Shown: positions 5,940 through 58,784 of the stretch, piece after piece
Layout: each line of letters begins with the position of its first letter
Numbering within the stretch: position 1 is the first letter of the stretch
NCBI GenBank assembly: GCA_024137785.1
Contig: JAHRHZ010000099.1
Span: 12,111,872 to 12,175,871 of the forward strand
Direction: 5' to 3'
Source of the DNA: Ginglymostoma cirratum
Lineage: Eukaryota
Length of the DNA: 64,000 bases
Notes under the pieces: generated by a model
What the model saw: only the letters and a program-made list of their open reading frames with translations
Database searches by the model: none
Told to the model about the DNA's origin: nothing
Translations under genes and position numbers: made by a program

Positions 5940-6035
<96 letters not shown>

Positions 6036-7980: not shown

Positions 7981-8334
<354 letters not shown>

Positions 8335-14239: not shown

Positions 14240-15229
14240 TAAGACACACACATACACATAAATGAAGCGGTGTTGAGAAGTCGAGCTAAAACAATTTTGC
14301 CTGGGATGCGATATCAATGAATTTGCATCAGTTTCGCTAATTCCATCACTTTCATTACAATGCTGCGCATGCTTGCTGCATTAAATGTTGTGACGATTGG
14401 CGTTTGTATATGGACAAACACAACTGTTGGTTCAGTTAGATGCAGGACAATGTTCATTACCACATTGCGACTGTGTAAATATCATTAGGCAGGCGCTAGC
14501 CCCGTGAAGAATGAAAAATAGAGATTTGCATTTATGTAGCACCTTGAACGAACTCTAAATATCCCGAATCGCTTCACACTCAATGAAAAGTGCTCACTGT
14601 TGAAATGTGGCGATTTAAGTAAAGATTAAAATGTGATTTCCTTTGAATCGCTCACTGACGTTTTAATCGTTTCTAGCGTAAGAAATTAACAGTCAAGACG
14701 AAATTTGGAAAAGTCGAATGCTCTTTCCAGTCCAACATCGTGTCTTGGTACAATCATGTGAAATATGAGACTCTTGCGTGAAGGTGCTTTGCAACTGTAG
14801 CAAATCTTGGCTTTCGGTCTGCATTATGCAGGCCAGACTTTCGGAAGCGCAGTCCCAAGCCAAGTCCTGTCTTATTGTCATTCAAAGACACAGATCGGCC
14901 ACTCGATGTCATTGTCTGTGAGCCCGTAGCCCCCACCCCGACTTCTGATGCAATTCGTTGCATTGGCTGAAAACCACAAGATCTTTATTTGAAACAATAG
15001 GAATCTTGGAGGCCAGAGTCCATTCGGCCGATCATACAAATTCTAACCCCGTGAATGAGTAATCCGATTAGTTTCACACCCCCTCACTTTTTCCTATAAC
15101 ATTTGCAAATTAAAATGGGCGGGTAAACGGACACGGAAACAGGCATAATTACCTCGACTTCTTTTAAAAACAAAAGACTAATTGTGATTTTTCAAAGAAT
15201 GTTTCAAAACAGCATATGCAATATTTAGA

Positions 15230-15378
15230 GATAATAGGAATTGCAGATGCTGGAGAATCCAAGATAACAAGGTGTCGAGCTGGATGAACACAGCAGGCCA
15301 AGCAGCATCGTCGGAGCAGGAGAGCTTGACGTTTCGGGCCGAGACCCTTCTAGGCCCGAAACGTCAAGCTCTCCTGTT
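15230..15378. mobile_element. Penelope-derived palindromic element, family A, with 16-bp TSD
   Basis: ATATGCAATATTTAGA at 15214-15229 and 15379-15394; inner inverted repeat CAGGAGAGCTTGACGTTTCGGGCC / GGCCCGAAACGTCAAGCTCTCCTG. Confidence 0.85.
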
Positions 15379-16716: not shown

Positions 16717-16935
16717 AAAGAAAAACTGCCGATGCTGGAAATCTGTAACAACAACGGAAAGTCCTTGGAAAACTCAACAGGTCTGATGGCATCTGTGGCG
16801 AAAGAAACAATTAACATTTCAAATCTGTTATGACTCTTCTTCAGAACTTTCAATGTTCAAGAGTCATATTAGATTCAAAATGTCAACTCTGTCTCCACAG
16901 ATACTGCCTGGCCTGTTGAGTCTGTATAGCACTAT
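16717..16935. mobile_element. Older Penelope-derived palindromic element (family B-related)
   Basis: Arms CTCAACAGGTCTG..GCATCTGTGG / CCACAGATACTGCC..CCTGTTGAG; minus-strand hammerhead remnant GTTCTGAAGAAGAGTC...GATTTGAAATGTTAA. Confidence 0.65.
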
Positions 16936-19300: not shown

Positions 19301-19426
19301 TGTTTACAAATTTATTGATTTAACAAAATCAATGTATCTCATAACTAAATAATGTTTGTGCTATTTTCTGCTGTGATTACTCATTAATTGAAATCTTATT
19401 CTGTTCTGATTTATTTTTGGAAGCAG

Positions 19427-20013
19427 TAGACGAAGATTGCAACTCGACAGAACATCCATACAAGAAGTCATATATTGAAAGCTCGCCTCCAGAGGATGAC
19501 CCATTCTACAGGTCCTCAAGTTACTCCCAACAGCAAAGTCTTACGCCCTCTTATAGGACTGACTCAGCACAGCGACAAGCATGCATGTACGCTGGCTCAA
19601 CAGCAGACACGGACCCCAGCTCCAGCCTTGATGATATTAATTGTAACACTTGGGCCACTGTTCCCTCATACAGCAGCTGCACAGTTACAACAATGCAACC
19701 CATGGACAGATTGCCCTACCAACACTTTTCAGCACATTTCACATCAGGCCCGTTAATGCCTCGCATCTCTGGAGTCGCCAACCATACGTCTCCACAGATA
19801 GGGGACACTCACAACATGTTTCAACATCAGAGCTCAGTTTCGCATCAGTCTATAGTTCGGCCATGCACCCCTCAAGCTGGGATCCAGTCTGCAAGCAATC
19901 TTCAACCTGCTGACTACTTGTATCCACACGGCATGTCAAGAACCCTCTCACCCCATCAATACCATTCAGTACCTGGAGTGGGCATAGTGCCTGAATGGAC
20001 TGAGAACAGCTAA
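19427..20013 (+). CDS. TBX5: TBX5 terminal coding exon ([14 protein letters not shown]...[11 protein letters not shown]); start may be 19424, 19427 or 19430
   Basis: ORF 19417..20013 matches the TBX5 C-terminus ([30 protein letters not shown]); three in-frame acceptors AAG CAG TAG; TAA at 20011-20013. Confidence 0.95.
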
Positions 20014-29880: not shown

Positions 29881-32800
29881 TTTAAAGTACTTTAAGAATT
29901 AGCCACATTGTTGCCATACCAGGTAAGTTTGGCAGAGTTCTTTCCCTCAAGGATATTAGTGAACCAGATGATTTTATTTTACGCTATTTCTAAAGAAATA
30001 GGAACTAATTGGTAAATGAATGTACATCCGAGGCACCATATGCTGCTGTAGTCAGGTGCTGAGTAACAATCTATCACTCCATCAGCCACATGGAGGGCTG
30101 TAAGAAATATACTCAATAAATCTCCAGCTTTTTGAGTCATGAAGTACAATTATTTTGAACATCTGGGAGCAAGAAGACAACACACTTATAAAACACTGGG
30201 AAAGACTGATGCATTTTATTTTCAAATAAAACAGATGCAGCAAACCAACAAAACTTGGTTCTTTAGAACCTTAGGGACCAACTTCCTTTGAGAGGTGTAA
30301 ATTCTTTTGGCTTCCATATTTCCCCAGGGCTGAGAGTTGACTATGATACAAGATCTCATAGGTTTAAACAGTTTCTTGAAATCATTTGGAGTTTACTATA
30401 TAACATTTAATAATCAATTATAAAGTAATTCTAGCATTACATTATTGTACAACGTAGATTCAGCATTTATCACCATGAGTTTAAACACCAATTTGAGAAA
30501 TATTTAGTACTTTATCTGTAAGTTGTACTTTCTACAATAGAGGAAAAAATTGCATCCTTTGACAATTAATGAATATCACAAGATTTCTTCATTATTCCAC
30601 AAGTGCACTCACTATTTTATGTAAGGTGCTAAAAAAATCTTTGTAAATTAACATGTTGGTAAGGTGGAAGCCATCTGCCTTGCAGCAAGTGTATCTCATT
30701 AAAATATTTTATTTTTGTTAAAAATGTAACAAGTGAACTTGTCTCCCACTGTTAAACTCATTAAAGAAAGCTGCCTGCATTGTACCTTTCATTCACAAGG
30801 TTTCATGTTTAGAATTAGGACTAGATTTATTGTCGTGTGTACTGAAGTATAGGAATACAGTGAAAAGTGTAGAAAGTCACCATTCTACAGCACCATAAAT
30901 ACTTTAAAATACAAAATATGTTTGTAGAGTAGTTATTCTGCTAGCACTGTGCCTCACTGAATATTACACATGCAGCTGTTGTCAATAAGTGCCTCCAGCC
31001 AATCTTCTGAATGTTCTTCCTGCAACTCCTACCCAGGCCTGAGAAATCTATAACGTGTAGCAACTTCCCTGCTTCAAAAATATACAGTTCAATCCATGTA
31101 GTATTAAACATAAATACTCTTATCAGTCTTGCACAATATTAATCTAAACTTCATGTGAATATCTAACCAACATAACCTAAGCTGGTAAGATTTGAACTTC
31201 AATAGGAGTAAATTTGTCTTTTTGGGTAAGCAAAATGTAGATAATGTTCGATCAACTGTCCATTATATAATTTCCCCTGATTTTCATTTTGTTTGAATTC
31301 AATGGGCTGAACTGACAGTGCGCCTTTTATACCATTGTCCGAAAGCCAGAGGATCAGAACTATGCTTTAGTTACTGGGCAGAATATGTGTTTGAATTTTA
31401 ACAAATGGATTGAATGAAATTAGGTGGAAAATAATTGCAGCATGGTGATATTAATAGCTGCACTCTATTTATGGCTCCAGCTCTTTTTATGCTTGCTCAG
31501 AGGGCTGTGCACTGAAGCAGCGTGCTTCTGCACTGTTTAATCAGCAGATTTTTAAAGGCTGATGGACTCAACGCAACTGAGGAAATAATCACAAAGAAGT
31601 GAAATATTCCACTTATATCTAAAGTCTCTCAAGAATTAGCTTTGCTGGACGGTGTGCAAGGAGTTTCCTTGGCGATCCCTTGTTTCACATCCTTTGCTTG
31701 AATTCTCAACACAAGGAAATAATTCTTCTGCCATAGTCTACATATTTTAGAATGTTACTCATTAGCGCATTTTAGTTGCTAACAGTGTTTTGTTAAGTGG
31801 GTACTTATTTTGAATCTCTGCTGCATCATAAATCTCTCATATCATTCAATGTATCCTGTATGGACTTTAAGAGGCATATTTAATTATGTTTCCTTCATGT
31901 TCAAATGTGAGTGTTTACTGACAAAACATTGATACAGTAACTATTGTATTGCAATGAGTGAGTATTAAGTAAGGCAGCTTCATGTGCTCCAACGTTCTAT
32001 GAGTTTACTTGACAGCTCTGGTAAGTTGTATACTTCTGAGTTTTACTTATGTATTATTTCATATATTTAATTCCCACTGGGCTGTAGGTCAACTCCTTAT
32101 GTGACAGATTGGTAGACATTGTTCACAGTGATATGGATGGTGCAGACTGTTTGATAAACAAGCAAAGCTAGTGGGTGAAGTGCAGGCCTTTATTTAGATG
32201 GTGGTTAAAACCCCTGCAGATGCTTTCTGTTTGTGTTATCGGTATATGATCAGCTTCCTTAAAGTTGAGTACCTGCCTGAAACGCAGACAGCTTCTCACG
32301 GGTCTTCTCGAGAAGAGTGTTGCTTTGATCTCAAACAGAAGCCTTTAAGAAGTCTGGCAGATTGAACTTTCATAGTGGAAGTTTCTAGTAAAAACAAAAA
32401 CTGTCAGAGTAGTTTCTTCCACCAGTGGGCTGACAAAATACCTCAGACATGAGACATTTAAATCAAAATTAGATTAACATCTTAAGTATACCTCTTGGGC
32501 TTCTAGTGTTATTGAAGGAAACATTACACGTTCAAGTTCTGTGCAAAGTTATTCTTTTTGATTTGAATTAAACTTGTTTCTTTGTCCTGAATCCAATTAG
32601 GCTAACACACAATGCCTGTAAATTAGGCAATGGAAATACGTTATAAAATTCCTTTGATCAAAATGCAGAGCTCTTAAAGCAGCTAATGCTGCTGTTGACT
32701 AAAAAACAGATGTAATACCAATATGTTAAGCAATTATATAACAATATCATACAGTGATATTTTTAGATTTATCTGTATAATACTCCATATATTGGCAACA

Positions 32801-33964: not shown

Positions 33965-34880
33965 TAAAATAAATACACAAAGTGCTGTAAATACTTGGTA
34001 GGTCAGGCTGCCTCTCTAGAGGGAGAAATAGGACTAATGTTTCAAATTGATGACATCCTATGACCACTTGAAAAAACCTTGTTATATAAAAGGCTTACAC
34101 AGGCATAGAAACAGAGAAATGGCTGTTGGGAGAAAGGCAAAAGAGAAGGGTGAGATGGTGTGGAAGGCAGGAGGGAATAAATAACAAAAGGCATGTTGGC
34201 ACAAGATGAAAAGAGATAGAGATGGGACAAACTAAAACAAAAAACCAAAGATAGGTCTAGAGGAGATTTAAATGAGAATAATAGAACCATGTAACTGATT
34301 CTTTAAAAATTAGAGGTCAATATTGTTATTGGAAACTGTTGCATGTGGTGTTGAGTCCAGAAGGCTGAGAAGTGTCTAGTTAGAAGATGAGGGCATCATC
34401 ATAGAAACCCTACAGTGGGGAAGCAGGCCATTTGGCCCATCAACTCCACACCGACCCTCTGAAGAGCATCCTACCCAGACGCACGTTCCTACCCTATAAC
34501 TCTGCAATTCCCCTCAACTAGTCCACTGAGCCTGCAGCTATATGCAATTTAGCATGGCAAATCCACCTAACCTGCACATCTTTGGACTGTGGGAAGAAAC
34601 TGGAGCACCTGGTGGAAACTTACCTTGATACAGGAGAAAGTGTAAACTCCATACTCTCGAGGGTGGAATCTGGCACTGTGAGCCAGCAGTGCTAACCACT
34701 GAGCCACTGTGTCATCATGTTCCATTGAACTTCACTGGAACAGTGTAGATAATTGAGTACAGAGTGATGGGTATAGGAGCTGGGTGGACAATTAAAGTGA
34801 CAGACTACTAAAAATCTGGAATCATATTTGTGACGGAAATGAGTTGTTCTGCAAAATGGCTGCCCTTGGTCCTCTGGTTG
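33965..34880 (-). mobile_element. Penelope-like element 3' remnant (GIY-YIG C-terminus plus pLTR-like end), split by a SINE
   Basis: Minus strand reads VVCHFNCPPSSYTHHSVLNYLHCSSEVQ [SINE] LIF*LDTSQPSGLNTTCNSFQ*, then a pyrimidine-rich UTR and an end related to the palindromic elements. Confidence 0.65.
34398..34710 (-). mobile_element. HE1/V-SINE-like SINE
   Basis: Minus head CACAGTGGCTCAGTGGTTAGCACTGCTGGCTCACAG; CR1-like tail CTGTAGGGTTTCTATGA; flanked by CATCAT. Confidence 0.8.
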
Positions 34881-37371: not shown

Positions 37372-37596
37372 TAGAGATAACAAGGTGTAGAGCTGGATGA
37401 ACACAGCAGGCAAAGCAGCATCAGAGGAGCAGGAAGGCTGACGCCTTGGGCCTAGGCCCTTCTTCAGAAAATCAAGGTCTAGGCCCAAGGCATCAGCTTT
37501 CCTGTTCCTCTGATGCTGCTTGGCCTGCTGTGTTCATCCAGCTCTACACCTTGTTATCTCAGATTCTCCAGCATCTGAAGCTCCTACTATCTCTGA
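37372..37596. mobile_element. Penelope-derived palindromic element, family A, with 12-bp TSD
   Basis: ~90-bp inverted arms starting GAGATAACAAGGTGTAGAGCTGGATGAACACAGCAGG; AAGAATTTTAAA at 37360-37371 and 37597-37608. Confidence 0.85.
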
Positions 37597-41645: not shown

Positions 41646-44126
41646 TTTCTTGTGGTAAAGACAAATGCAACTTTTTGTTTTTTTATAACCTTGAATGACT
41701 CACAGACAATGAAGTTAACAAATATTTAAACTGAAAGCACAAACTCTGAAACAGCCAAGATAGAGATATTGTAATTCAGATATGCACATCTTTCAATGTT
41801 CTGAACTTAGCCAATGCTGTAATCGTAATAATAGTAGCTTACTTAATGTGGGGAAACACTGGTTCAAGATTTAATCCGTCAGAAGCAATACAGAATAGCT
41901 TGGAAAAAAAACCTACCAGGACCACAAGATTAATATTCCAATTACACTGTAATATTGCGCGTTAAGTATATGGCTCAGCATACCAAGAAATAAAACTTTA
42001 TTTATGCATTTTAAAAGTAGAACATAATTAAATACTTCTGAACAATTCAAAACAGCAACCTTTCAATTTTCGGTTACATGCATGGAAATCTCAAATTTTA
42101 GCAATGCTTGTTTGAAAACCCACATAAAAGCTCACTTCTTGCTATGTTAATTTTCGCTATCTTTGCATAATGGTGTTAATATAGAAACACGTTGAAAGTC
42201 TGGTCAAAGTGATGTTGTGCAGGTACAGTTTCAGATAACCATTAAGTCCAGTCTATTCGTCTAACAAAAGGAAATGTCTTATCAATGATTTAATGATCAA
42301 GAGAAAAGCATTAAACACAGACTTATTTCAACTATTCTAACATAAATGTAAAATACTGACAAATGTAATGTATATTTTAAAGTTTTATTATTTAGTCGCT
42401 GCTGATCTTGTTCAACTTATTTCCACTTACCAAAATATGTTTGTATCTCAGTAGCTAATGCTAATTACAAAATAATCACAACACAAAATATTTAAGCAGT
42501 TCTAAGCTAAACTGCAATTTCATAATTACAACATCAAAAAAAACAGACACATTATTCCAACTCAAATGGCCAAATTACATTTTATTAATTAATAACATAA
42601 GCACTAGGCTGCACTGTTTGGTACATATCCATCAGACTGTCAGAGGTGAAATGGTAATTCTCTTCAAACTTTTCTCTGCCCAGGTCACATATTTTAGTCA
42701 AGTTTTTAATCAAGGTATAGACATGAGGCCCTTACACAGGGGCCTTTTCTTAAACAAATGTTGTTGGCTGTCTCATGTCTTCTTTCTAGAATAGCTGTCT
42801 GTCGTGATGATGGCTGACTTTCCAGAGAAATATCTGTGGCTTTGGCAGTGTCTTTGATCTTTCTATTCACCCCGTGCTAGCTACATGACAGTTGAACTGC
42901 TAAGATACACTGTAATTCCTGTGAAGTGTTTTCATTTTTTAGCCTTATAAAAATATCTCGGAAATTATGAGCAGATGAGATATTAATTCGTTTTAACTCA
43001 CCAAACAATTCTAAACTGCAGACTAATTAGTGCAAACTCTGAATAGACAGAATAACTGCCAATTGAAAATGCATTCTTTGTGGAATATTCATGTATTAAA
43101 TTACTAATGTATTAGGAGGATTTGCAATGATAATTAATAAAATTACCATAAACGTACAGCCTGAATCAGCCCATTATGCCAACGTTCGCACTCCACAGAA
43201 GCTCCTCTCTTCATTTAACTCCATCAGCATATTGTTTTCCTTCTTTCGTTACTCATGTCTTTATTTAGCAACTCCTTAAATACATCTATGCCACTTGCCC
43301 TAGCTCATCTTTGTGATAGTGAGTTTCACATTCTTATCTTACCTAATTGCAATGGTAATTTTAATCAATTGTGTTGCATGGAATGTACCTCTGCAAGTAT
43401 CTCAAAATTGAGTGGTGTTATGTGTGCAGTTAGTAGTTCTTAAAGTGAGAATGGGAAAAATCATGTCAAGGTAGTTGAGGCTAACAAATGTACTGAGAAA
43501 AATGGAAGAAAAAGGGACTGATAGAATGACCATAATCTCAGTCTATGCAGCTTCTAAGCGCTGCCACTTGGCAGTGCTGCATAATGTAACAGAAATTGCT
43601 TACTTGTAGACTCATAAACATATTCCAAAGTTCTTCTGTAGTATGAAAATATCCAGTTTAGATAATTATACATAAGTGAAAACATTCATAATAGGACTTG
43701 TTGTTATCAGCAACAATAATGCTAATATATATACAATATCTATACAATAAGATAATTTGACCAGTCATGGTACATCACTGGAGCATAACGAAACAAAAAT
43801 TGAATCAAACTGAACAATACGACCAAGTGCTTAAATAAAGGGAGAAATTTTACGGAAGATCTTAAAGTAGTGTGTATTCTTGAGAGTGATTCTCTATAAA
43901 AGAATGAATCATTGTTTTAACATCGGTTTTATCATTTGATAGATGTTTTAAACTGTCTTAAAATGCAGGAGTGGAGTATGCCAAGTAACAACCTCGTTCT
44001 ACCTCACACTAACACAACTTGCTTGCTATGGGAACCCAGGTCAAATTTTATTAAAACTCAAGTACTTTTGGACACAAGAAAAGGAACAGCAGATTTGACC
44101 CGGTGCAGATCTACTGACTCAGAGAT

Positions 44127-44320
44127 TAAAAGGGAGGGAGAAAGATGATCACAGCAGGCCAGGCGGCATCAGAGGAGCAGGAAAGCTGACGTTTCAGGTC
44201 TGGAAGGGTTCAGACCCGATACTTCAGCTTTCCTGTTCCTCTGATGCTGCCTGGCCTGCTGTGTTCATCTAGCTCCACACCTTCTTATCTCAGACCTCAG
44301 GATCGGCAGTTCCTACTATC
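44127..44320. mobile_element. Penelope-derived palindromic element, family A, with 17-bp direct repeat
   Basis: TCTACTGACTCAGAGAT at 44110-44126 and 44321-44337; arms CACAGCAGGCCAGGCGGCATCAGAGG / CCTCTGATGCTGCCTGGCCTGCTGTG. Confidence 0.8.
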
Positions 44321-44444
44321 TCTACTGACTCAGAGATCCTGGATAGAAAGTGAGAGAGTCCTGGAAAGGTAAAGAGAGAGGAGAAGCAGAAGCTGCAGGG
44401 AACAGCAAGGGAAAAAAGATTTTCTTTTAGCTAACAACCAGAAT

Positions 44445-44682
44445 GTTCTGAGGAAGGGTCACTGGACCCAAAATGTTAACTCTGATTTTCTCTTCACAGA
44501 TGCTGCCAGACCTGCTGAGCTTTTCCAGCAACTTCTGTTTTTGAACTAGAATCTGATGAAGGGTCTAGGCCCGAAACGTCAAGCTTTCCTGCTCCGAAGA
44601 TGCTGCTTGGCCTGCTGTGTTCATCCAGCTCCACACCTTGTTATCTCGGATTCTCCAGCATCTGCAGTACCTATTATCTCTG
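44445..44682 (+). mobile_element. Tandem single arms: family B (44445-44542) then family A (44551-44682)
   Basis: Direct homology to the right arms of 55537-55771 and 46248-46679; each arm starts at a hammerhead-like core. Confidence 0.8.
44553..44580 (+). ncRNA. Minimal hammerhead ribozyme motif (intact core)
   Basis: CTGATGA-A-GGGT CTAG GCCC-GAAA-CGTC; stem I poorly supported in this copy. Confidence 0.6.
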
Positions 44683-46157
44683 TTGGTTGGATCTAATTCT
44701 TTATTTGAAGAGATGGGGCCGGATGATGTTTAAGGCTATGTGAGGACTTGCCCTCATGTGGCTGGAAGAAGGAAATATTGGAGTGGGCCTGACTGCTGGA
44801 AGTTGGTTCACAGAGTCTCAGAAGATTGAGGGAAGCAATTTTCACTGATCACTGAATGCGACAACTCATCGAGCCTGTCGGAAGTTGAAAGTAACTCTGG
44901 ACTGGTTCCTGTAAAGACTTCAATTCTGCAAAGTATAGATTACATTTAAACATGGCATTGGAATTTTAGTTGTGCAAGCAAGTTAGAAGGTGATATATTT
45001 TCTATAATTTGGAATATTAGTGGCCTGTCAAATAATGTTTATTTTCATTAGTTCATTAACGTAAAAGTCTTAAAACTTTGAGTTAGCTATTGAGAATTTA
45101 AATCTCTTTTTAAATGTTATCTGTTTCTAGAGGATGTAACATCATAACAGATAACAGGAACAGAGTTACACACATTGTCAGTAAAATATCAATCCTGTCA
45201 TAATTCTGATCAATACATATTCATATGCCTAAAAATATTATTTAAATAAACCCAAATTTGGCACACTGCCCCTCATCATCAGCTATTGAATTCATATGAG
45301 GAACAAAGTCATATAGATCAGAAGTCTCCAATGATTCATTCCTGATCACCACTGGATTAGGTAGTCCTGCCTAATACTCCAGCTTGGTCACCTACAATTT
45401 TCCTCAGTGAACCGTGATTAATAGAAGATTAAATATGAACAAATATCACACGTAAATTGAAACCCAAACACAGCCTGATGTTAGACGCCAATTGTAGCTG
45501 AGCGTTAAATTTTTTAACTCCCAAACTTTTTGCCACATCTCATCTGATCGTGAAATTCTCATCCATGTCTTTATTATTAAGAGAATTCACTATTGTGATG
45601 TTTGGTCAGTCAACTAACCTCCCTCTGCACCACATAGAAAACTTCCACTTAATCTAAAACTGAAATTGCTGGAGAAACTCATCTGTGGCCAGAGATGTTG
45701 CCAGACCTACTGAGTTACTCCAGCAGTTTCTGCTTTTGTTTCAGATCTTCAGCATCCATTGTGCTTTGTGTTATTCACTAATTCCAATTCTGATGCTCCT
45801 GTCCTTTCTTGCACCAACCCGTTCATCCATCACTGATTCATGCTGACATCTGGTCCTCAAATACTTCAAATCTAAAATTCGTTGTTTTTGTGTTTAACCA
45901 TCTAAAAGGATGCTGAAGAACTATTAGGGTTTTCTTTACCAAAATCCAACAACATTTTAATCACTTTTTCTGATTTCAATTTAATTTCTAGATCTTTGAT
46001 TAAATTATATGATGAGTAACTGTATGGGTTCTTCAAAAGTGATCAGAGGAAATATTGGACCAAATTTCCACTATAGTAAATATTAATTCTTATCTGAAAG
46101 GTATAGATATTGAATTTCAGTTTTGTAAGTTTTGCATAGTTTTAGATTTAATCTCTG

Positions 46158-46202
46158 AATTAATTATTATTGTGAGTTACTCACTCACAATAATAATTAA
46201 TT
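46158..46202. repeat. Perfect AT-rich inverted repeat, 20-bp arms with 5-nt spacer
   Basis: AATTAATTATTATTGTGAGT-TACTC-ACTCACAATAATAATTAATT. Confidence 0.9.
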
Positions 46203-46247
46203 ATTATATTCAATCTAAAACTACCTAAAAGAACACAGAATGTGGGA

Positions 46248-46679
46248 GGTAACAAGGTTTATAGCTGGATGAACACAGCAGGCCAAGCAGCATCATAGGA
46301 GCAGGAAAGCTTGACGCTTCGGGCCTAGACCCTTCATCAGAAATGGGGGAGGGGAAGAGGGTTCTGAAATAAACAGGGAGAGAGAAGGAGGCAGATAGAG
46401 GATGGATAGAGGAGAGGATAGGTGGAGAGGAGACAGACAAGTCAAAGAGGCGGGGATGGAGCCAGTGGTATCTTCTCCTCTATCCATCCTCTATCCGCCT
46501 CCCCCTCTCTCCCTATTTATTTCAGAACCCCCTTCCCCTCCCCCATTTCTGATGAAGGGTCTAGGCCCGAAACGTCAGCCTTCCTGCTCCTATGATGCTG
46601 CTTGGCCTGCTGTGTTCATCCAGCTCTACACCTTGTTATCTCGAATTCTCCAGCATCTGCAGTTCCTATTATCTCTGAT
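46248..46679. mobile_element. Longest family A Penelope-derived element (~170-bp inverted arms), with 13-bp TSD
   Basis: ACAGAATGTGGGA at 46235-46247 and 46680-46692; purine-rich and pyrimidine-rich inner arms. Confidence 0.9.
46549..46576 (+). ncRNA. Minimal hammerhead ribozyme motif (intact core)
   Basis: CTGATGA-A-GGGT CTAG GCCC-GAAA-CGTC; the mirror copy on the minus strand (46313-46340) has GAAA changed to GAAG. Confidence 0.65.
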
Positions 46680-47929
46680 ACAGAATGTGGGATGGTAGCT
46701 GGGCCATAGAAGTGACACCACCTACAAATTGCCTTCCAAGTAAGGCACCATTTTGAGTTGGAAATATATCACCAAACCTTCATTATCACATGGTCAAAAT
46801 GTGCAAATCCATCCCTAAAGTCTAACAATAGGTAACTTCTCTTTCCAGCAGTTTTGTTTTGACCAATCAATGACTAGCTGAAGTTATAACCAAAATGACA
46901 CTGTTTTAGCTGTATGAGCTATTCTGGTAGAAAGTACCTTAACACAAGTAAATGTACTTCATGAGCCAGATTTTTGATCCCAGTGGAAGCGTGGAACATC
47001 AAATATGATATTTCTAGCTAGGAAAATAATTTTCCTCTGTTTTTCCAAGCCCTCGCAGTTTTGTGCGGCCTTTGGCTTAGTCACAAAGATTTTGGGTGCA
47101 AAATGTTAACTCTGCCAAAGTTGAGGTCTCCATTGTGAGAAAATCACAAAAATTGTATATCCTTTAGCATACACTTTTCATGTGCTCGCGGTGTGTGCTT
47201 TCTAAGTCCTAAAAATACACTTCTTTTGAGACTTTAAGACCTCCAGGGGAGGCTGGCAGAGGAGTTCAGAACATTCTTAAATGTAGTTGTGAATTGTCTT
47301 CACACCTTCAACTGTTGCTAATAAATATTGTACTGTAATGTAGATGTGTTTTAATGGAATGATTCACAACAGAAATCAATCCTTCAAACTTAAACTGACC
47401 CTTATGCTGACCAGCATGGTGTTGTAGTATATTCCAATTGTTAACATTGCCAAAATGCAGCAAAATGTAGAAAAGAATGTCCTGTCAGGATCTGCTGTCA
47501 TGTTTTGTTCTGTGATTTAATTTGACAGCTCTAACTGTCAGAAAAGCCAGAACTTTTGAAAGTTGAACTGAAGCTTCTATACCTACTTTCTGTCATTTAT
47601 TAACAGGCATTAAACTTTGGAATGAAAATGGGACATTATTCTGTTCTGTCAGTCTAAGGCCATGTGGCTGGAAGTTTTGGCTATATCTGTTGTAACCATT
47701 AAGGTTTTGGAGTAGATTTGTTGGCTTGGTTGCTTGGCTGGATTCAAAAGCTAATAATGCTGTAAGCTTAAAACATGGTCTACTTATCTGAAAATAACTG
47801 AAGTTTTTAAGTGGCTGTATTAGCTGTTCAGAGGTTGGAAAATCTGCCGTGAGTATCTCACCTCTTGATTTCATAAAGCCTGTCCCAACATTTATTAGGT
47901 AGAAGCCAGAAGGATGATCTTTGTCTGAA

Positions 47930-48365
47930 TGAGTGCTGCTCCAACCAGATTCAAGAATCTCTACATCTTCAAGAGAAAAGTGTCCTCTGAGATTGGCATT
48001 CCATCCACCACCTTAATGTTCACTCCGTCTGCCACTGGCACAGAGTGACAGCAGTGTGTATCACAGGCAAGATGCACAATATCAACTTACTGATATACCT
48101 TTGGCAGTATTTTCTGAACCCATATATCTACCACTCAGAAGAACAAGGCAGCAGGCAGATAGAAACACCATCATCTACAAGATCTTCTCCAAAGCACATA
48201 TGATCCTGATTTGGAAATAATTTGCTATTCCTTGTCTATAACTGAGGCAAAATACTAGACTGTCCTCCCTAAAAGAAGTTCACTGACTCTGATTTAGGAA
48301 GGTAATTCACAACCACACTCTTAAGGGCAATGAAAGATGCCAGAACATACATATCCAATGAATGA
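47930..48365 (+). mobile_element. LINE 3' fragment (family of 17335)
   Basis: TGAATGAGTGCTGCTCCAAC...GCAGTGTGTATCAC...GATGCAC...CTTAAGGGCAAT. Confidence 0.6.
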
Positions 48366-51300
48366 ATTTTTTAAAAAATACTGTTTTGCCTTTTTTGCAA
48401 CACTCAAATATGAATATTCCAATACAATAAACACACAAATATTAATATCCCAAGAAGATAGCTAGAGATATACCTCACATGTCTACACTAGAAAAGATTA
48501 ATTGAAAAGAGCAGTAAATCATTCTTATTATTCTATTTATCATGTTCAGCATTGGACCTTTTCATCAAGGTTTTGTCTCTGAAATGAATAGACCACTACA
48601 TTTCCACTATTTTAAATTACAGGATACCACAGTTCTAAAATTCAAAATTTTTTTAAAAAGTTGATTTTAAAATTCTCCTCTCTATTTTCAAATCTTTCCA
48701 TGGCCTCAACCCTCTCTATTTCTGTAATGTCCTTGAACAGTACAATCTTCTGAAATCTCTGTTGTCCTCAAATATCAAGACTTTAGTCATCTACCACTAT
48801 ATATCTGACTTGATAAGGCCCACATGAAGAATGCTTTAACATTTTATTATGTTAGATGTATTGCATTCATACAAATTGTTGCCATTGAGATATTTTTCTG
48901 CAGGGTGATTAATCCATTTTAATATATACAGGTTAATATCTCTAATATAAAAATATCAAAATAAATTTCAGACAAATAAATACAGTATAATTTCAGGACC
49001 AGTATCCTTTTCCACGAGGTCTTTATTTTCCTACATTTCTCTCTTTCTTTCTCATAACAACAGCTTTTATTTTATGTATATAATTAATCTTTCCTTAACA
49101 TATTGATTATCATCTAGGCGCAGGACTATTGCATTCTTTAACATTGAGAATAAATTTCATAAAATGTTGTTCTTTCCACAAGTATAAGAATTGAATAGAA
49201 ATAAAATCTTAAATGCAACAATTTTTTGTTTCTATGCTTGTGTAAAATACAAATGTTCATGACAAGATATTTTTGACTGACTTTCTGATTATCATTATAG
49301 ATATCATTAGATAATCCAGTTTAACACATGGCAATTAAAGTCGTAATGTCAATTAGCCTAAGTAAGTTGGTTGGCTAAGCATGAGTGAAATGAGATGTAG
49401 AAGGACAGTCAAGTAGGATATTAAATTAAGCATTTTTTGTCAGACAGCGTATCTTCTGGTTCAATTATAGCATTCAACAAATCACTGAGCTCATAAATCA
49501 TATTGATTGAAACTGAGTTACCAATTTGCTTTGCTACATAAATATACAGTGCAACTTACAGAAGATTGTCTGCATGTATTTCCTTTTAGACTACGTCTTC
49601 TCAATATTGATAACACTTTCTCTTTGGACAGTGTTTATTTGAAGAATTCCTTTTACATCAAATCAAATATCAGCAGTGGACCTTTGTAGGAGACATCACT
49701 ATAGTTGTTTTTCCCACAGCAGGAACTGTAAAATATGAGCAACACTGACACAGCAATGGCAGGAAGACTGCATGTGTTGAATTGTACAGCAGTTATATTC
49801 TGAGGCTGCTCACAAAGCTAAGCCTGTGGATGTTGGAGCTCATTGTTTCTACCAGAAAATCCAAAAGAATAGGATTGTGCAGCCCAGAAGGAGGCCATTC
49901 AGTCCATTGAGTATATACCTGTCCATTCCAGGAAGAATTCAGTTAGTCCTATCATCTACTTCAACCTGTTTGTTCTTCCTCTGATTTTTTTTCTCCAAGT
50001 ATTTATTCAATCAATGATCTTCTTACATAATAACGTAACAACTAACTTTTACACCAATTTTTAATTTGCCAAGTAAGGCATGGCAGTATTCTTAAATGCT
50101 CTTCTCAATTACTCTTAAATGTTTTGTACCTGGATCTTGTGTGTAAATAGTATTAATGCAATCTGATCGCAGCCTTGTAGATCTGTTGCATTCATTACTA
50201 ATCACAGGCACTGCTGGAATTAAAAATAGATGGAAGCTAGCAAATGTTGTAATGCATTGTTGTACAAGCATAGCAGGGAAAAGGACGAATTAAATTTTAA
50301 GCTATGGTTCTGATAAGTGTGAAATTGGATGGTGAAGTCTTTTAAGTCATTGTTGGAGAACAAATTCATTTTAAAATAATGAAAATCTGAGATGGAGATG
50401 GCATATGATTGCGAAGGAGTGCAAAAATTGAAGCTTCACAAGAGCTTTGTACAAAACAGCATGGACCACATAATATGCTCAATCTGAGTGAAGTTCTAGG
50501 CTGAATTTCTGAGTGAGTGCAACTAAAGATTTATTTGGCTTTAATTTAGTGTCAAGTCACATTGACCATTGTTCTGGTACTATGCAAAATATGGGCATAG
50601 TTCAAAAAATTGATGCAAATCTCATCAGAAATTGACAACCTTGTCTAAATTCATTGATATACTGAAAATAAAATCAGAGGATATCAGAAAAACAACTTTT
50701 ATGATATTGACAGGACCATGAGCATCCTAATTTTCTTGTTTCTGACATTGCTATGCAGTAGATAAGATACAGGATGGATAATTGTTTAAAAAAAAATAGA
50801 AAAGTCCAAGGCTATAAAGTCAAGTGGTTTTTGAATACAGCTGATTGTTAAAACAAAATTTCAAGAAAATAACAGGGGAGGAAAGTATCACAGGGATGAT
50901 TTTAAACTTAAAATGTTTTTGAGATAGAAATGATAGATTATTACTACAACATGACAGCATTTTATCTCTAAGAACTCTGTGACACATTGGGTGGAATTTA
51001 TTTCCTGGCCCCTGGCGGCAAATTTGTAGGCATGGTGAATTTAATTGGACTGGAGGGTGGTGGGTTGAAGTGGTGGGCATTTTGGATTTGGCCACCTTGC
51101 TTCTGCCTGATTAGATTCAGAAGACTTTATCAACAGTCTGATGGGAACTTCGTACAGGTGACCCCTCACCACTGAATGTAATGTGAGGCTCTTGCCAGTT
51201 CTCCAGCCTATGAGTGAGATGACCAGCACCGCCATTAAATTCTGCCAGTATGCATAAAATTCAGTAATTTATTTGTGATTCTGATAAAATGTTCCAAAAG

Positions 51301-53861
51301 CAGTCATCAAGCTTTTATTAAAAAATGCAAGAAAATATGAGAACAACATAAGATTGCTTATTCCATCAGTCATCTCTTCTATTCTGTATGTAATCTCCTT
51401 CCACAGTAATTATCTCCTTTTGATCATCCCTATCCAAATCTGCCTATTGTTTAATCAACCTTACCCTTGCAGGCCTCTAAATTTCTCCCACCTTCTTGCC
51501 AATAATTACCCACCTTCCTCAACCAGTACAGCAATTGCCGAATCAAACATGCAAAACAGAGAATAAAAGAAACACTCTCTGGGCTACAGCCAGCTTCATG
51601 ATAACTTGGACATATTCTCTTGTTTTACACATGTGATGTGTGCATATAAACAGTCCTAAGGTCAACAAATAAATGCTAAGTGTTCTGAAGAATCGAGAGT
51701 TGTTTGACAAGGTCATCAAAGAATTTCTTTTTTTGATGAATGATGCACTTCACTTTCAAAAAATTCTACAATCCATTTTATTGTTGGAATGTTACACAAG
51801 ATAACACAAAAGCCATAAAAAGATAAATGTGGAAACCTTGGATGTCCAGAAAAACAGTCAAATATATTTTCACCCATGTCAAGGTCTATTGATATGTTAT
51901 GTATATAGTGAACAATTTTACATTATTCTTGTAAGGAACTTGGAAACATTACTTAAGCTGATGCTAGTCAGCAAGATGTCTTGACAGGGAATATTTTCTC
52001 AATAACTGATAATTACATGAGTGATCATGGGATAAATAAATTTCACAGTGCAAAATCTCAGCACAGGTCCTGTGAATTATCATATGGGATTCAAAATTTA
52101 CTGTACAAATATGAAAGGTTTGCATAAAAGTCAAATTAGTAAACATCTGGGTGGATTTAGTGAATTAAGAGATGAATTGTCTTGATTACAAATGATCTGA
52201 AAATTTGATGTTTTCATCAAAGCATCCCAGCTAACAGCTTCAGAACCAAGGAACACACAAAAACTCAAACGACGAAAAGGTCAAAGTTGCTTCTTCAAAT
52301 GTAACACTCCCATTTTGGAATGTTATTGATCCTCTTAATCTGAAGAAATTGAATCAACCAAAGAGAAAATTTCAGAATACATCGATGTGGAACTCCCCTC
52401 ACCCACAAATACAACAAATTCAGCAAAGGTCCAATTAAAGTCTTATTGTTGGGACGCTCCGGTGGCTCTAACTCAAGATTTTCATTATCCTTTAGAGACT
52501 CTCCATACCTTAGTTTTTAAATTGCTATCCTTATTTTGTTTGATTGTTTACCACATCAATAAATGATGTAATGTTTTAGGAAAATCTGCTTTGAATAGGA
52601 TAGCCCTATGTTTTCTTTCAAGTGTTGAACAATATGATCGATGCACTAAATAATTTTAGAAAGATTATCTGACTACCCGCAAGATTTACTGTGGAGCGTA
52701 TCTTGATGAATGCATATTAAGGGATGTTTTCCATTACAATGTACACACAACTATTAAAACAAAACAACTATAATTGTTGGAAAAAACTGAAGATTTGCAC
52801 CAGCACACAATGAATGGCTGCAAGTGCTTATTTTCTGAGCAATTGGGAATTATTATATTTAGCTATAAATTTTAAATACGAAACACTGAGACAAAGAGAA
52901 AGTTCCTTCCAGCACACACTTAAAATAAAGTGATATAGCCTTAAAGACTCAGTTCCTAGATTACTTCTAAAACAAAAGGAGTGTTAGGCAAGAAACACGC
53001 ATGAATGTACAAATAAGTGGCAGGGAGATTTTCACCTTAAGTAATGTGCAATTAAATTGGATAATATATTTAAGACTAGGGTTTACTACACACACCACAT
53101 AAAATAAACCCTTCCCAGTTAATGTTCAAAGTGGAAAGAGTTTCTCCTTTATTTAGATATTAATTAGAAACATACGCAAGCATGCTTATTAGATTTGATG
53201 TACTTCGATCATTTGACTACCAAGGAATGCAGGTGTCATTCATCCATAAGCATCTTTGGGAAAATACATATTGGGTAGATTTTCAACTAATTTCCTGAAT
53301 GTAAAATTAGAACCATGGCAATTAACAGCAACAAGAAAGTTCCAGACGTAGACGAAAATATTTTTATCCTGTACTTGTGTGATGCCAGATCCAAACCAGC
53401 CTGAAGTGGTCTGTGTTTTTGCAGGTTATGAATGAAAATAAGTCACATTAGCAGTATTTTCAGTTTTTACCATTGTTTGATGTTGTTTACCCTAAATCCG
53501 TACACGGAAACCAGTGAAAAAAATCTCCAGGTCAAAGCTGTAATCAACTCCAATCTATAACTAATTTATCATTTTTTCTAACACCAATTGCAACCAAAGA
53601 GTTTAGAAGAATATTAAAAAAATCTCGATCAAACCACCTGTATAACAAGTTGTCCACTTGATTGTTGACATCTTCTAGCACAAAGTTGTAGAGTAGTATT
53701 TGTAGGTGCTTGGCAACACAGTACAGCAAACATTTCAGTTATGACACTGAATTAATGGAGAATTAATTATTAGTTCATGATTTTACAATATGAAAATAGG
53801 TGTAACATTTTGATAAGTTGTTCTGCTGGGTAACTGTGAATGTTCTTCCATCAACCAGACA

Positions 53862-53995
53862 TTAAAACAAAGAACTGCAGATGCTGAAGGTATAAAACAA
53901 GAATACAATTACTGGAAACACTCAGCAAGTCTGGCAGCATCTGTGGAGAGAAAGCAAAATTAATATTTCACGTCCTATTACCTTTTTTTAGAACT
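53862..53995 (-). mobile_element. Single arm of a family B-related element
   Basis: AAAGAACTGCAGATGCTG...CTCAGCAAGTCTGGCAGCATCTGTGGAGAG. Confidence 0.6.
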
Positions 53996-54029
53996 TATCA
54001 GAACTTGTCAAAATATTAAGAGATGAGAG

Positions 54030-54376
54030 AGCTAGACTGATCTTCTGAGTCTATGGCTTTAAATTCAACCATGGCCAATCTCAGATTCTAAATGAAATTA
54101 ATGAAATCTAGATAATAAAGCTAGTCTCAGTGATGACAATCAAGAAACTATGAGGTCTTGTTAAAATCCATCTAGATCACCAAGTGTCTTTTAGGGAAAG
54201 AAGTCTACTGCCGTTACCTGGTCTGAATTACATGTGATGCCAGATGTACAGCAATATGATTGACTGTGAAATGGCCTTGTTTTTGGATAATTAGGAATGG
54301 GCAAAAATGCTGGCCTTTATCCATTAATTTATTATTAATTAATTAATTAAATCAATCAATCAATTAATTAATTAAT
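54030..54376 (+). mobile_element. Degenerate SINE (family of 12770) with (TAAT)n/(CAAT)n tail
   Basis: AAAATCCATCT...TGTCTTTTAGGGAA...CCGTTACCTGGTCTG...ACATGTGA; simple repeat at 54323-54376. Confidence 0.6.
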
Positions 54377-54947
54377 GACCAAGGATGAGGTTCATTGCTG
54401 TTGCGTTGAGCCTAAAAATTATTCTCTTCATATCAGTTCCCAGATGATTTTTAGGATACGAATCAACTGATCCTTTAGTGCTGTAATGTGGCACCTTGGA
54501 TTCTAGGAACAACCTCAAATAATTAAACAAATGTGCTTGGTCAGTTCTGTTGCCATTCTGGATATGACATCGAGGTACCCTTTTGGAAACTTGAATCTTG
54601 CATTTCCAGCATGCATGTTGACTGCTAGAGCAAAATTTCTGGGCATGATTCTATCTTTAGGAAAGAAAAAGGCCATGACAAATTTCACTTCCATTGTGGT
54701 GAATCATCTAAAAATAATGAAAATGTGAATTTTATTTTGGGAAATAAAATGACTATTCAAAATATCATAAAATACAAAATCTGAAGTAAGCTCTTAAGAG
54801 AGCAGACATTTCCAGAAAAATATCATTATTTTTAACAAATAACTGAAATATGCTAGAGCCACACCTCAATATTTTGAACAAGTTATGCAGAAATCTACAT
54901 GTAGAATTCCTTTCGGACTGATAAACAGTGTGCATTCTCTCTTAATA

Positions 54948-55360
54948 ATTGGAGAGTTGTGAATGCAGCCTAGTTCATTCTGCAAACAAATCTTCCGCTC
55001 ATTGGCAGCATCGAGACGTCCCACTGCCTTGGGAAAGCAGCCAACATAATCAAAGAACCCTCCCACCCTGGTTATGCTCTCTTCACACCTCTTCCATCAG
55101 GCAGAAGGTACAAAAGTTTGCATACATGTACCAACAGATTCAAGAACAGCTTCTTCTCTGCTGTTATCAAACTTTTGAATGGACCACTTATTTATTAAAA
55201 TTGATCTCTCTCTGCACCTTCCCTGTAGCTGCAATACTGTATTCTGTTCTCTTGCCCTGGTGTATTTATGTATGGTATGATTTGCCTGGATAGCACGCAA
55301 ATCAATACTTTTCACTAAATCCTGGTACATGTGACAATGATCAAATCAAATTAAATCAAT
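54948..55360 (+). mobile_element. Rex1/Babar LINE 3' fragment
   Basis: Reads CLGKAANIIKEPSHPGYALFTPLPSGRRYKSLHTCTNRFKNSFF.AVIKLLN; tail TGTGACAAT...(CAAAT)n. Confidence 0.8.
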
Positions 55361-55536
55361 AAGGATGGAGCCATTTGCCTAAGACAGACAATCAAGGGGC
55401 AGTTTGACAAAACCCTTCCTTTAAGGACTGAAGTGTGCAGAAGGACATCACTGGAGTTTAAACATTTCATACCATTAATAGTGCGAATGAGCATTCTGCT
55501 ATTTTTCCCACTGAGGACCAGTTTATCTGTTATGGT

Positions 55537-55771
55537 TACAAAAACAAAGTTGCTGGAAAAGCTCAGCACATCTGGCAGCATCTGTGAGGGGTAAAAAACA
55601 GAGTTAACGTTTTGGGTCCAGTGACCCTTCCTCAGAAACCTCCTGAGGAAGGGTCACCGGACCCGAAACGTTAACTCTGTTTTTTCCTTCACAGATGCTG
55701 CCAGACCTGCTGAGCTTTTCCAGTAACTTTGTTTTTGTTCCTGATTTACAGCATCCGCAGTTCTTTCGGTT
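55537..55771. mobile_element. Penelope-derived palindromic element, family B, with imperfect 15-bp TSD
   Basis: ~97-bp inverted arms; TTTATCTGTTATGGT (55522-55536) versus TTTACCTGTTACGGT (55772-55786). Confidence 0.85.
55643..55672 (+). ncRNA. Minimal hammerhead ribozyme motif (intact core, 5-bp stem II)
   Basis: CTGAGGA-A-GGGTC ACCG GACCC-GAAA-CGTT-AAC; the mirror copy on the minus strand has GAAA changed to AAAA. Confidence 0.65.
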
Positions 55772-56744
55772 TTTACCTGTTACGGTATTGGCTTGCAAGT
55801 TCCTGTGGAGATGCGATTGATGTATGCCAACTTCCAGTGACCCTTTCTTTACTGTGGCTGTCTAATTGGTCAATCATCAGCAGTGGCTTTGAATGCTACT
55901 GACCTCTTTGGTTTGGTCAATTGATTGTCGGGTTAAATTCACCCAGACCTTTCATGACAGGACTGAAAGCAGGGGTGGCCGAGAAGATAGTGGGGACCTC
56001 ACTGGGATGGCTCTCCACACATTCCAATGACCAGGAATCATTTTCCAAACATGGCCTGAGAAATAGATTGCTCGCCTTCTGCTTGCAGACAATTTCAATA
56101 GTAAATTAGGGGTATTTTTCTGGCATTGCCGCATGTCCTCCGACTTGAAGGCACTGTCTCTCTTGCGGTCTGGGGACCCGTCAGTTTCAGAGGCCCCACA
56201 GGAGAACGCTGACAGGAAAGGTGTCCTCTTCTGACCTCAACAATCCAAATGGATGAGCTTTTTCTCTTTTCTGAGGGGCCCATTGCCTTTCCCCCTCTAA
56301 ATATTTAACTACTGTTATCCCTTTAAGGGCATCCACATATTGAAGTATCCTTGGTGACAACAAGCTTGATATAATGGTATGATGTAGTGACCCGGTACAT
56401 TTTTAATTTCTCTGATTTTATTTTTTAGTGCGGCGGGCCCAATTATAAATAAATAGTGCAGGAAACGGTGGATTATGAAGAACAAGTCGTGTTCAGCGCA
56501 GCTTGAGATTCCACAATCTTTTCACACTAGATTTAAAGCTATCCTACTGGAAGCCAGTTTACACACAAATTTGGCCAGAAGAGAATTAGTCATCAATCAG
56601 AGCTTTCAGTAATTGCAGTCATTTGCAGCCCTTTGAGGAGACTTTGAAACTGAACTCAAATGGTGTGGAATCAAGGAACTCATAAGTTTGTCTTGAAAAA
56701 ATTGTGAAATACTTTTAAAAGTACTTCAAATTAGCTTAAAAATA

Positions 56745-57699: not shown

Positions 57700-58058
57700 T
57701 CATTGGTGATGTGGGCATTGCAGGTCCTACATATACTATCCATCCCTTAGGGGGCAATTATGCCCCAGAGAACAGTTCAGAGTCAACGGCATAGTTGTGA
57801 GGCTAAAGTCACATTGAGGCCAGATCAGGTAACTATAGTAGTTTCCTTTACTAAACGACATTTGTGAACTAGATGGGTTTTTCTGACAATCATCAATGGA
57901 TTCATTGTCATCGTCAGACTCACAATCCCAGATTTTTTCATTTAATGCAAATTCCGCTTTCTGCCATGACAGGATTTGAACCCAGGTCCCCAGATCATTA
58001 ACTGGTCACTGGATAAATAGTCTAGCTGTGATAATACTGCTTGACCATTGCCTCCCCA
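57700..58058 (-). mobile_element. tRNA-headed SINE (family of 12770)
   Basis: Collinear with 12770-13112 over ~340 bp; ends CCATTGCCTCCCC. Confidence 0.75.
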
Positions 58059-58693
58059 AAAATGAATGTTATGCAAATAAATTTGAGCATTAAAAAAATC
58101 TTTGAAGACAAATACAATTTTGGATGCAATTTGGAAACATTACCCCAGCAAGTGGAGGGATTTACTGCATGCATTAGTTTACTTACCACATACTTCTTCC
58201 AGACTAATTTTCCCTGCAGCACTAAAAGAATGCAACAGTTTCGGAGATGCCACCTTTCAGATGAGGTATAAATTTGAAGCCTCATTTGCTAATTCAGATG
58301 ATTAAAAAAAATTCCGGCACCATTTGAGCAGAGCAAGAGTTTGTCTGGTATTTTGACCAATAGATGATAAGCTTCAATGGTGATAATTTAGTTATGCAGC
58401 AACTTATGGTGAGAGTTTAATTGATTAAAGAATTATTGAAGTGTAATTTCCCAATAACATAAGTCAAATACACAGGCGACAAGCACAGTATGGGGTATCA
58501 TTTCCAGCTAGTAGGGCAAAGGCAGCAGGCACATGGGAACAACAACTCTAGCAAATTCCCCTCCAAGTCACTCACTTCTTGACTGGGAAAAGTTGGTGGC
58601 CATGAGCGGGCATGTATTCAGATTCAGGAAAAATCCAAAAATGACAGTTGTAGAAAGCACTAACCCACAACTCTGCAGACAACTAAATCAAAA

Positions 58694-58784
58694 CGGTTTG
58701 GAGCTGGAGGAGCATAGCAGGCCAGGCAGCATTAGAGGAGCAGGAAAGTTGACGTTTTGGGTTGGGACCCTTCTTCAGAAAATC
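58694..58784 (-). mobile_element. Single arm of a family A-related element
   Basis: GGAGCTGGAGGAGCATAGCAGGCCAGGCAGCATTAGAGGAGCAGGAAAGTTGACGTTTTGGG...CCCTTCTTCAG. Confidence 0.7.

Follow-up and report, generated by a model that had tools for sequence, protein, structure and literature searches.

What kind of element carries the hammerhead-ribozyme motifs that recur within a short stretch of shark DNA, and what might the ribozyme do there? The question is raised by 64,000 nucleotides of the Ginglymostoma cirratum genome (assembly GCA_024137785.1, contig JAHRHZ010000099.1, positions 12,111,872 to 12,175,871 of the forward strand), called the window here and numbered from its first letter. A preliminary description, made from the letters alone, had proposed two families, A and B, of short non-autonomous retroelements derived from Penelope-like elements (PLEs). 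We consider it very probable that the motifs are minimal type-I hammerheads in the pseudo-long terminal repeats (pLTRs) of two endonuclease-positive (EN+) PLE families that carry an open reading frame (ORF), and that the window copies are short 5'-truncated insertions, likely left by run-off copying of uncleaved transcripts and likely inactive as ribozymes. The observations behind this reading are the linkage to the ORF, the geometry of the repeat copies (arms), their tails, the target duplications, a peak of 5' ends, TATA- and initiator-like motifs, and covariation.

The window holds three exact minimal type-I cores together with mutated relatives, all at the positions first claimed for them:

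44553 to 44580, plus strand: exact family-A core, CUGAUGA-A-GGGU(CUAG)GCCC-GAAA-CGUC
46549 to 46576, plus strand: family-A minimal hammerhead, the same core intact, stem I of 2 bp, predicted cut after 46576
55643 to 55672, plus strand: family-B minimal hammerhead, core intact (CUGAGGA-A-GGGUC(ACCG)GACCC-GAAA-CGUU), without the 5' strand of stem I, predicted cut after 55672
44448 to 44477, plus strand: mutated family-B hammerhead, G12A and C15.2U
46313 to 46340, minus strand: mutated family-A hammerhead, A15.1G, in the partner arm of 46469-46677
55606 to 55635, minus strand: mutated family-B hammerhead, G12A
58751 to 58778, minus strand: mutated A-like hammerhead, G12A
about 16815 to 16846, minus strand: older, decayed B-like hammerhead

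A structural descriptor combining the core, stem II and a palindromic helix III matches the window at precisely the three exact copies, and gave no match in 198 and one match in 2 of 200 first-order Markov controls. A loose pattern by itself is weak, with 12 window matches against 5.9 expected. The Rfam scan of the window (E at or below 5) returned 26 matches and none to hammerhead families; they are mostly to microRNA models on hairpins, all below the gathering score. The window motifs are confirmed as real minimal hammerhead sequences, and the marks by which they had been recognised as Penelope-type, the palindromic helix III and the extra A after A9, are borne out by the letters. On stem I the earlier judgement was half right: it is weak in family A, but the core is broken in the supposedly convincing family-B example at 44445. 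Stem I counts 1, 2 and 0 pairs in the three exact copies, because two are clipped at the 5' edge and one comes from an A subfamily with a 2-bp stem I, and the individual window copies are likely inactive as ribozymes where they are inserted.

The parent elements become visible next to the same repeats elsewhere in the genome. Many of 30 loci with the family-A end share upstream sequence, up to 1,077 bp, which encodes a reverse transcriptase (RT, with YIDD) and a GIY-YIG domain on the hammerhead strand. Searching the 4.36-Gb genome with the family-A protein gave 141,582 first-look candidates, 107 of which were scored. In 20 of 20 long family-A loci, picked for long open frames, the hammerhead lies about 320-350 nt past the matched ORF end; most of these loci also carry a second arm in the opposite orientation, and L075 and L083 have the order pLTR-ORF-pLTR in a unit of about 3.6 kb. 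For family B, 30 of 30 endonuclease-fragment loci are followed, some 260 nt downstream, by a B hammerhead in the same orientation. Over 271 residues the proteins of A and B share 62% of positions, yet at four-fold sites no more than 38 of 90 agree; in alignment both have a C-x4-C-x2-C linker between RT and endonuclease and a CCHH-type GIY-YIG. In Pfam, RVT_1 passes for L075, and GIY-YIG scores 21.6, just below the cut-off of 22.6; a Pfam scan of two partial frames had no matches. Homologues of the ORF carry PF00078, PF01541 and PF26215, and the closest named ones come from the sharks and rays Rhincodon, Hypanus, Chiloscyllium, Stegostoma and Mobula. By their sequence, A and B are the pLTR-plus-tail ends of two putatively autonomous, endonuclease-positive PLE families of Neptune type, Neptune rather than Nematis being our assumption from the host range. 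The linker, of the form CX2-5CxxC in the Neptune clade, and the CCHH-type GIY-YIG are marks of Neptune/Nematis (PMC8557442).

A third family, C, was found by the descriptor and is also located downstream of a GIY-YIG ORF, with 21-31% identity to A and B in same-strand matches. It has an AGCU palindrome, two subfamilies and a long CA-rich 3' untranslated region (UTR) (loci L282, L301 and L306), and no family-C copies were found in the 64-kb window. At least two further, decayed hammerhead families occur elsewhere in the genome (L020, L105, L122). All five family-A copies running past the tail (L075:2148-2330, L083, L006, L007 and L004) have an ATG frame of about 28 codons with its TGA exactly at the tail end. 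This frame is in phase with the long ORF in four of the five, and an upstream ORF, read-through or a later start are possible.

Is the ribozyme structure itself maintained? We read ribozyme positions by their offset from anchors in three A subfamilies (n=33, 16 and 30), in B (n=86) and in subfamily C2 (n=34), leaving out C1 (n=4). The commonest letter at all 11 core positions (C3-A9, G12-A14, A15.1 and U16.1) and at the extra A is the same in the A subfamilies, B and C2; N7 and H17 vary. Helix III has no loop and reads ACGU in A and B and AGCU in C2, and the extra nucleotide between 9 and 10.1 and the G10.1-C11.1 pair are present in the families examined. Compensatory changes are found in all three helices. 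Between families, pair 3 of stem II is G-C or A-U, and pair 4 is U-G in A, U-A in B and G-C in C2 (the commonest there, 15 of 34); pair 1 of stem I is U-A or C-G, pair 2 is U-A or A-U, and pair 3 is U-G in A, G-C in B and C-G in C2. The anchors required part of stem II, which partly preselects its first pairs. Since the core and the compensatory pairs are kept while four-fold (neutral) sites are 42% identical between A and B and their 3' UTRs align no better than the best of 100 shuffles, the ribozyme structure is, judged from these alignments, under selection between families, acting on active elements. The preliminary description had supposed as much for A and B.

Individual genomic copies decay. 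G12, which lies in a CpG, has mutated at a rate like that of other CpG columns, with changes in 16% of the A arms (n=120) and 26% of the B arms (n=88), and the whole core is kept in 91 of the 120 A and 43 of the 88 B arms. The contrast in change between core and flank within families (1.3% against 6.4% in A, 4.0% against 6.3% in B) was not used as evidence, because alignment through the core was a condition for including an arm and the subfamilies differ in the flank. Five pLTR copies folded as single strands gave z values from -1.2 to +1.4, which leaves a special monomer fold unsupported.

The length of stem I raises the question whether the family-A motif still cleaves, or is kept as a protein-binding or structural module. 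Stem I reaches 5 bp in C2 and 4 bp in B and in A_AAGT (11 of 11); in A_AAGC it is 3 bp, including a wobble (23 of 23), and in A_AGCY 2 bp (8 of 8). The stems of A_AAGC and A_AGCY are weak, yet these subfamilies are abundant and young, and ribozyme mutants were without effect on insertion in vitro (PMC11167929). However, the 11 core letters and the palindrome ACGU are retained throughout the A subfamilies, one of which has the 4-bp stem, and cleavage by the anole ribozyme depends on protein (PMC11167929), whose help could offset a weak stem. A loss of cleavage in family A seems somewhat unlikely to us.

Where, then, do the short copies begin? Positions are counted here with C3 as 0. The preliminary description had proposed 5' RACE for ends after the GUC or GUU of the predicted cut site; among genomic copies, none of 128 B arms and no more than 3 of 149 A arms end there. 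An apparent cut-site peak in A (+28/+29, 9 arms) was rejected, as 6 are alignment breaks in diverged subfamilies with the hammerhead continuing upstream, and 3 remain. The 5'-end counts leave out arms that touch N, fall below 85% identity or stop short of +60. A random sample of the genome comprised 100 stretches on nine contigs, each 10 kb long and set at a round coordinate, with 552,380 bases unmasked. Among its arms that reach the core start, 12 of 25 A and 11 of 13 B arms end at -6 to -1, and only 2 A and 1 B arms end at -60 to -7 (binomial p about 1e-10 each); among all arms not chosen for their 5' part, 28 of 93 A and 58 of 71 B arms end at -6 to -1. Similarity of the short arms to long copies stops at C(-5), and in the long copies this C-A is the centre of an initiator-like YYANWYY, which is the initiator consensus. 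TATTTA is located 31 nt upstream of the initiator-like A in family A, and TATAAA 29 nt upstream in B; a TATA-like box stands at the same place in 19 of 23, 11 of 11 and 8 of 8 promoter-bearing arms of the three A subfamilies. One family-A arm of the window carries both motifs:

46514 to 46520, plus strand: TATA-like box TATTTAT, 31 nt upstream of the predicted +1 A, of presumed function
46543 to 46549, plus strand: initiator-like site with the predicted start at C46544/A46545, doubling as the 5' strand of stem I, as suggested by the pile of short-arm 5' ends

Subfamily C2 has TATAAA at -39, the initiator-like A at -8 and the end of stem I at -5. A prediction fixed beforehand from the start-site model was that its short arms end at -9 to -7. 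The seven arms ending between -10 and -2 do so at -9, -9, -9, -7, -7, -6 and -6, none at -5 to -2; two share flanks, giving 6 independent events (Fisher p 2e-6 against A and B together). Since the 5' ends gather at a TATA/initiator-like site, 3-5 nt upstream of the core, and move further upstream along with the TATA in family C, the ribozyme likely begins a capped transcript, and the short copies likely begin at its transcription start. RNA-type contigs from four runs, which carry no end or strand information, cover the pLTR at 20-40 times the depth of the ORF start and have no shared GT-AG joint.

The same peak could also be the edge of a folded or protein-bound hammerhead, that is, an RT stop or a processing point, as in A and B it lies where stem I has its outer edge, and a cap-derived G is absent. 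RT going 3' to 5' would, however, be expected to stall before a structure and not after reading through it, and in C2 the arms end at -9 to -6, beyond the end of stem I and in step with the TATA. We find this explanation of the peak unlikely.

The arrangement of the window copies, which are mostly head-to-head pairs, is as follows:

46246 to 46679: one family-A insertion, an untailed minus arm (46246-46466) head to head with a tailed plus arm (46469-46677)
46235 to 46245 (left) and 46680 to 46690 (right), plus strand: target-site duplication flanking this insertion
55538 to 55773: one family-B insertion, an untailed minus arm (55538-55637) and a tailed plus arm (55643-55773)
55527 to 55536 and 55777 to 55786: target duplication of 10 bp with one mismatch, flanking the family-B insertion
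44445 to 44543, plus strand: untailed family-B arm, beginning 3 nt upstream of the core, with hammerhead 44448-44477, head to tail with the next A arm
44552 to 44683, plus strand: tailed family-A arm, beginning 1 nt upstream of the core, with hammerhead 44553-44580, core intact and stem I partner absent
37374 to 37596: family-A inverted pair with a 12-bp target duplication
15227 to 15376: family-A inverted pair joined within stem II, target duplication about 13 bp
44104 to 44323: older family-A inverted pair joined within stem II
58690 to 58781, minus strand: older A-like untailed arm, beginning 3 nt upstream of the core
16721 to 16848, minus strand: older B-like tailed arm, hammerhead decayed

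The claim of more than 10 remnants in 64 kb stands, because 19 A/B arms are listed in the window. In all three families the 3' ends are bimodal, with a distance of about 35 nt between the groups: +92-94 and +127-129 in A, +95-100 and +130 in B, +80-81 and +117-120 in C. A tail of 30-40 bp is present on one end only, and 54 of 57 abutting same-family inverted pairs consist of one tailed and one untailed arm. Target duplications of 8-16 bp are found in 55 of 75 inverted pairs (A, B and C) against 31 of 2162 mismatched flank pairs, and their length ranges overall from 6 to 16 bp. The pair junctions are distinct in 56 of 57 cases; as nearly all are unique, each short hairpin is a one-off truncated insertion and not a copy of an amplified unit. 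An arrangement of pLTR, tail and inverted neighbour has been published for PLEs (PMC3846280, PMC8557442).

Head-to-tail neighbours number 11, scattered and without any array among all loci examined (about 2 Mb). Four mixed A/B inverted pairs were seen, none with a clean target duplication and three with no duplication at all. The fourth, at L046:1404-1630, joins an untailed A arm directly to a tailed B arm, head to head, between flanks that carry a degenerate 11-bp repeat; if this is a single event, its two arms were copied from two different RNAs. The B and A arms at 44445-44683, head to tail, place two same-strand hammerheads 105 nt apart, and a natural dimer is unlikely there because the B copy has G12A and the A copy is without the 5' strand of stem I. 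Two exact copies sit in inverted pairs whose read-through RNA would form one long hairpin each (-338 kcal/mol, for the insertion 46246-46679 folded as a single hairpin, and -172 kcal/mol). Sub-threshold Rfam microRNA matches, down to E 4e-19, arise from the inverted pairs 46289-46621, 44128-44285 and 55596-55682, and such hairpins probably give rise to spurious microRNA calls in shark genomes. Within an old B-like inverted pair lies an exact 47-nt direct repeat (12261-12355).

Could the short A and B units still be self-propagating non-autonomous elements, similar to retrozymes or short interspersed elements (SINEs), with their own promoter and copied in trans by the Penelope protein? Some truncated copies, such as 46469-46677, keep the TATA, initiator, hammerhead and tail and could yield a short RNA, and subfamily B2 is short in 26 of 27 cases. 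Animal retrozymes have been argued to derive from pLTRs (bioRxiv 10.64898/2026.07.22.740005), and pLTRs are able to act in trans (PMC3846280). But the arms are 90-97% like the pLTR of ORF-bearing copies, and promoter-bearing members exist in 7 of 8 subfamily variants tested. Most short arms have no promoter and therefore cannot be re-transcribed, and neither the unique junctions (56 of 57) nor the 11 array-free head-to-tail neighbours in the roughly 2 Mb examined fit such a unit. We regard this origin as quite improbable, and the model of two families of short non-autonomous retroelements gives way to one in which A and B are the terminal repeats of ORF-bearing elements. Miniature inverted-repeat DNA transposons with an incidental hammerhead would explain perfect-looking hairpins flanked by target duplications, but the unequal arms with a tail on one side, the unique junctions and duplications of 6 to 16 bp speak against them, and the continuation of the arms into the RT ORF refutes a reading to which we give practically no credence.

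For EN+ PLEs inserted from uncleaved transcripts, we infer a start site, a run-off origin of the short arms and a decapping role of the ribozyme, in the following steps. RNA polymerase II would start 4-5 nt upstream of C3, so that the first four nucleotides of the capped RNA would be the 5' strand of stem I. The RT-endonuclease would nick both target strands about 10-15 nt apart, and reverse transcription would begin inside the pLTR and run off the 5' end of the uncleaved transcript. Priming at two internal sites about 35 nt apart would produce untailed and tailed ends, and with them two head-to-head arms; priming in the 5' pLTR would give arms of 100-135 nt stopping at the start site, and priming in the 3' pLTR longer ones. 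In elements that are still active, cleavage by the hammerhead would require a dimer formed through ACGU, and probably the aid of the element's protein, and would release a capped leader of 32-34 nt. Through the loss of this leader, the cut would likely tune RNA fate or translation, not the production of the insertion template. Our tentative suggestion, possible rather than probable, is that the hammerhead at +1 of the capped transcript is a self-decapping switch on the element mRNA, with the initiator doubling as the 5' strand of stem I and the dead arms, in their hundreds of thousands, acting as a genomic record of 5' RACE (rapid amplification of the ends of cDNA), and that it is not an excision or circularisation device.

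Several points weigh against this account. The C2 test is weak, with 7 arms and a 4-nt shift. A G at -5, such as the cap would leave, stands in 6 of 34 arms, which is no excess (p 0.72), and 447,620 bases (45%) of the random sample are N. In subfamily B2 only 1 of 27 members bears the promoter and nearly all are short, a picture that a short source mobilised in trans could also give, and the Penelope element of D. virilis was reported to have a TATA-less internal promoter (PMC2377424).

The class of element is already known; at this locus the motif is real and its family was rightly named, and the element model of the preliminary description was wrong. Minimal hammerheads have been described in metazoan PLE pLTRs, mostly in solitary truncated copies, with low activity and a need for a dimer, including the Xena, Poseidon and Neptune elements of fish (Cervera & De la Pena 2014, PMC4209133; reviews in PMC6155905 and PMC6765202). 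Our copies share with them the type-I topology, the absence of loop 3, the palindromic 15.2/16.2, the extra nucleotide at 9/10.1 and the G10.1-C11.1 pair, as well as the mostly solitary truncated state and opposite-strand pairs 100-700 bp apart, whereas stem II is shorter here (4-5 bp). Helix I, short and of about 4-5 bp in the published motifs, has that length in B, A_AAGT and C2, and fewer pairs in A_AAGC, A_AGCY and the three exact window copies. With the EN+ PLEs Neptune and Nematis (PMC8557442) they have in common the RT, the C-x4-C-x2-C linker and the C-terminal GIY-YIG with CCHH, along with partial tandems, an inverted 5'-truncated neighbour and a one-end tail of 30-40 bp. Animal non-LTR retrozymes (PMC7229834; bioRxiv 10.64898/2026.07.22.740005) resemble them in the type-I hammerhead, the relation to pLTRs and the lack of an ORF in short copies, but are head-to-tail tandem arrays, unlike the solo arms or head-to-head pairs seen here; retrozymes from pLTRs have been reported with one chondrichthyan genome included (bioRxiv 10.64898/2026.07.22.740005). 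A TATA box and an initiator-like motif are known from a rotifer pLTR (PMC3846280).

For Poseidon PAc of Anolis carolinensis, in vitro work found that reverse transcription begins at two internal sites which bound the tail, that each target strand is cut and extended, that uncleaved RNA is the main template and that none of the ends falls where the ribozyme would cut (Frangieh et al. 2024, PMC11167929). The families described here would share the two internal start sites, the use of both strands and the uncleaved template, and they show the same absence or near-absence of cut-site ends. PAc differs in belonging to another clade and in having an ORF that starts in stem II, and its main text maps 3' ends, without a 5'-end peak or a TATA/initiator at stem I (PMC11167929). 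What is added here is that 5' ends pile up at a TATA/initiator-like site and move upstream with the TATA in family C, and that cut-site ends are rare. In our literature search, which covered few subscription journals and neither Repbase nor Dfam, no paper dealt with hammerheads of shark PLEs or with truncated copies that begin at a start site beside the hammerhead; the supplements of PMC4209133 may list shark motifs.

The high abundance of ribozyme-bearing copies that had been assumed is borne out by the random sample, where the descriptor has 20 matches in 552,380 bases against 0-1 in each of 10 controls, 8 of the 20 with a stem I of at least 3 bp. The load extrapolated from this, about 60,000-160,000 per genome, is higher than the 4,000-9,000 reported in coelacanth and Xenopus, counted with another descriptor (PMC4209133). 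The sample also has 83 A and 45 B matches, about one arm per 4 kb of unmasked sequence, which extrapolates to about one million arms per genome if the unmasked DNA is representative.

The window also contains other repeats, and a trace of PLE coding sequence:

34701 to 34865, minus strand: decayed coding sequence for the GIY-YIG C-terminus, left by an old Penelope-like copy (tblastn 42%, E 4e-7)

A terminal repeat of this old copy lies near 33973-34045, and the copy (33973-34865) is interrupted by a repeat family, D11/D13 (9097-9257 and 34564-34707), which we take to resemble a shark SINE. Another, D6/D8/D12 (12892-13139, 29916-29977 and 57821-58066), presumably resembles the end of a CR1-type long interspersed element. 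An open frame of 222 codons at 19345-20010 on the plus strand resembles, as we assume from its C-terminal sequence, the last coding exon of TBX5; a protein search with it gave weak matches, one of them to a T-box cluster. If the frame is this exon, the repeats at 12-17 kb are intronic and those at 37-59 kb lie downstream of the gene.

In three families, the ends of the genomic copies give base-precise coordinates for the places where the transcript would start, where each of the two primings would occur and where the predicted cut goes unused, and natural stem I variants from 2 to 5 bp are on hand for comparison. The elements also constitute a large unnamed repeat load whose hairpins mimic microRNA families. 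If the proposal of self-decapping is true, it would part translated or degraded RNA from the uncut RNA that serves as template.

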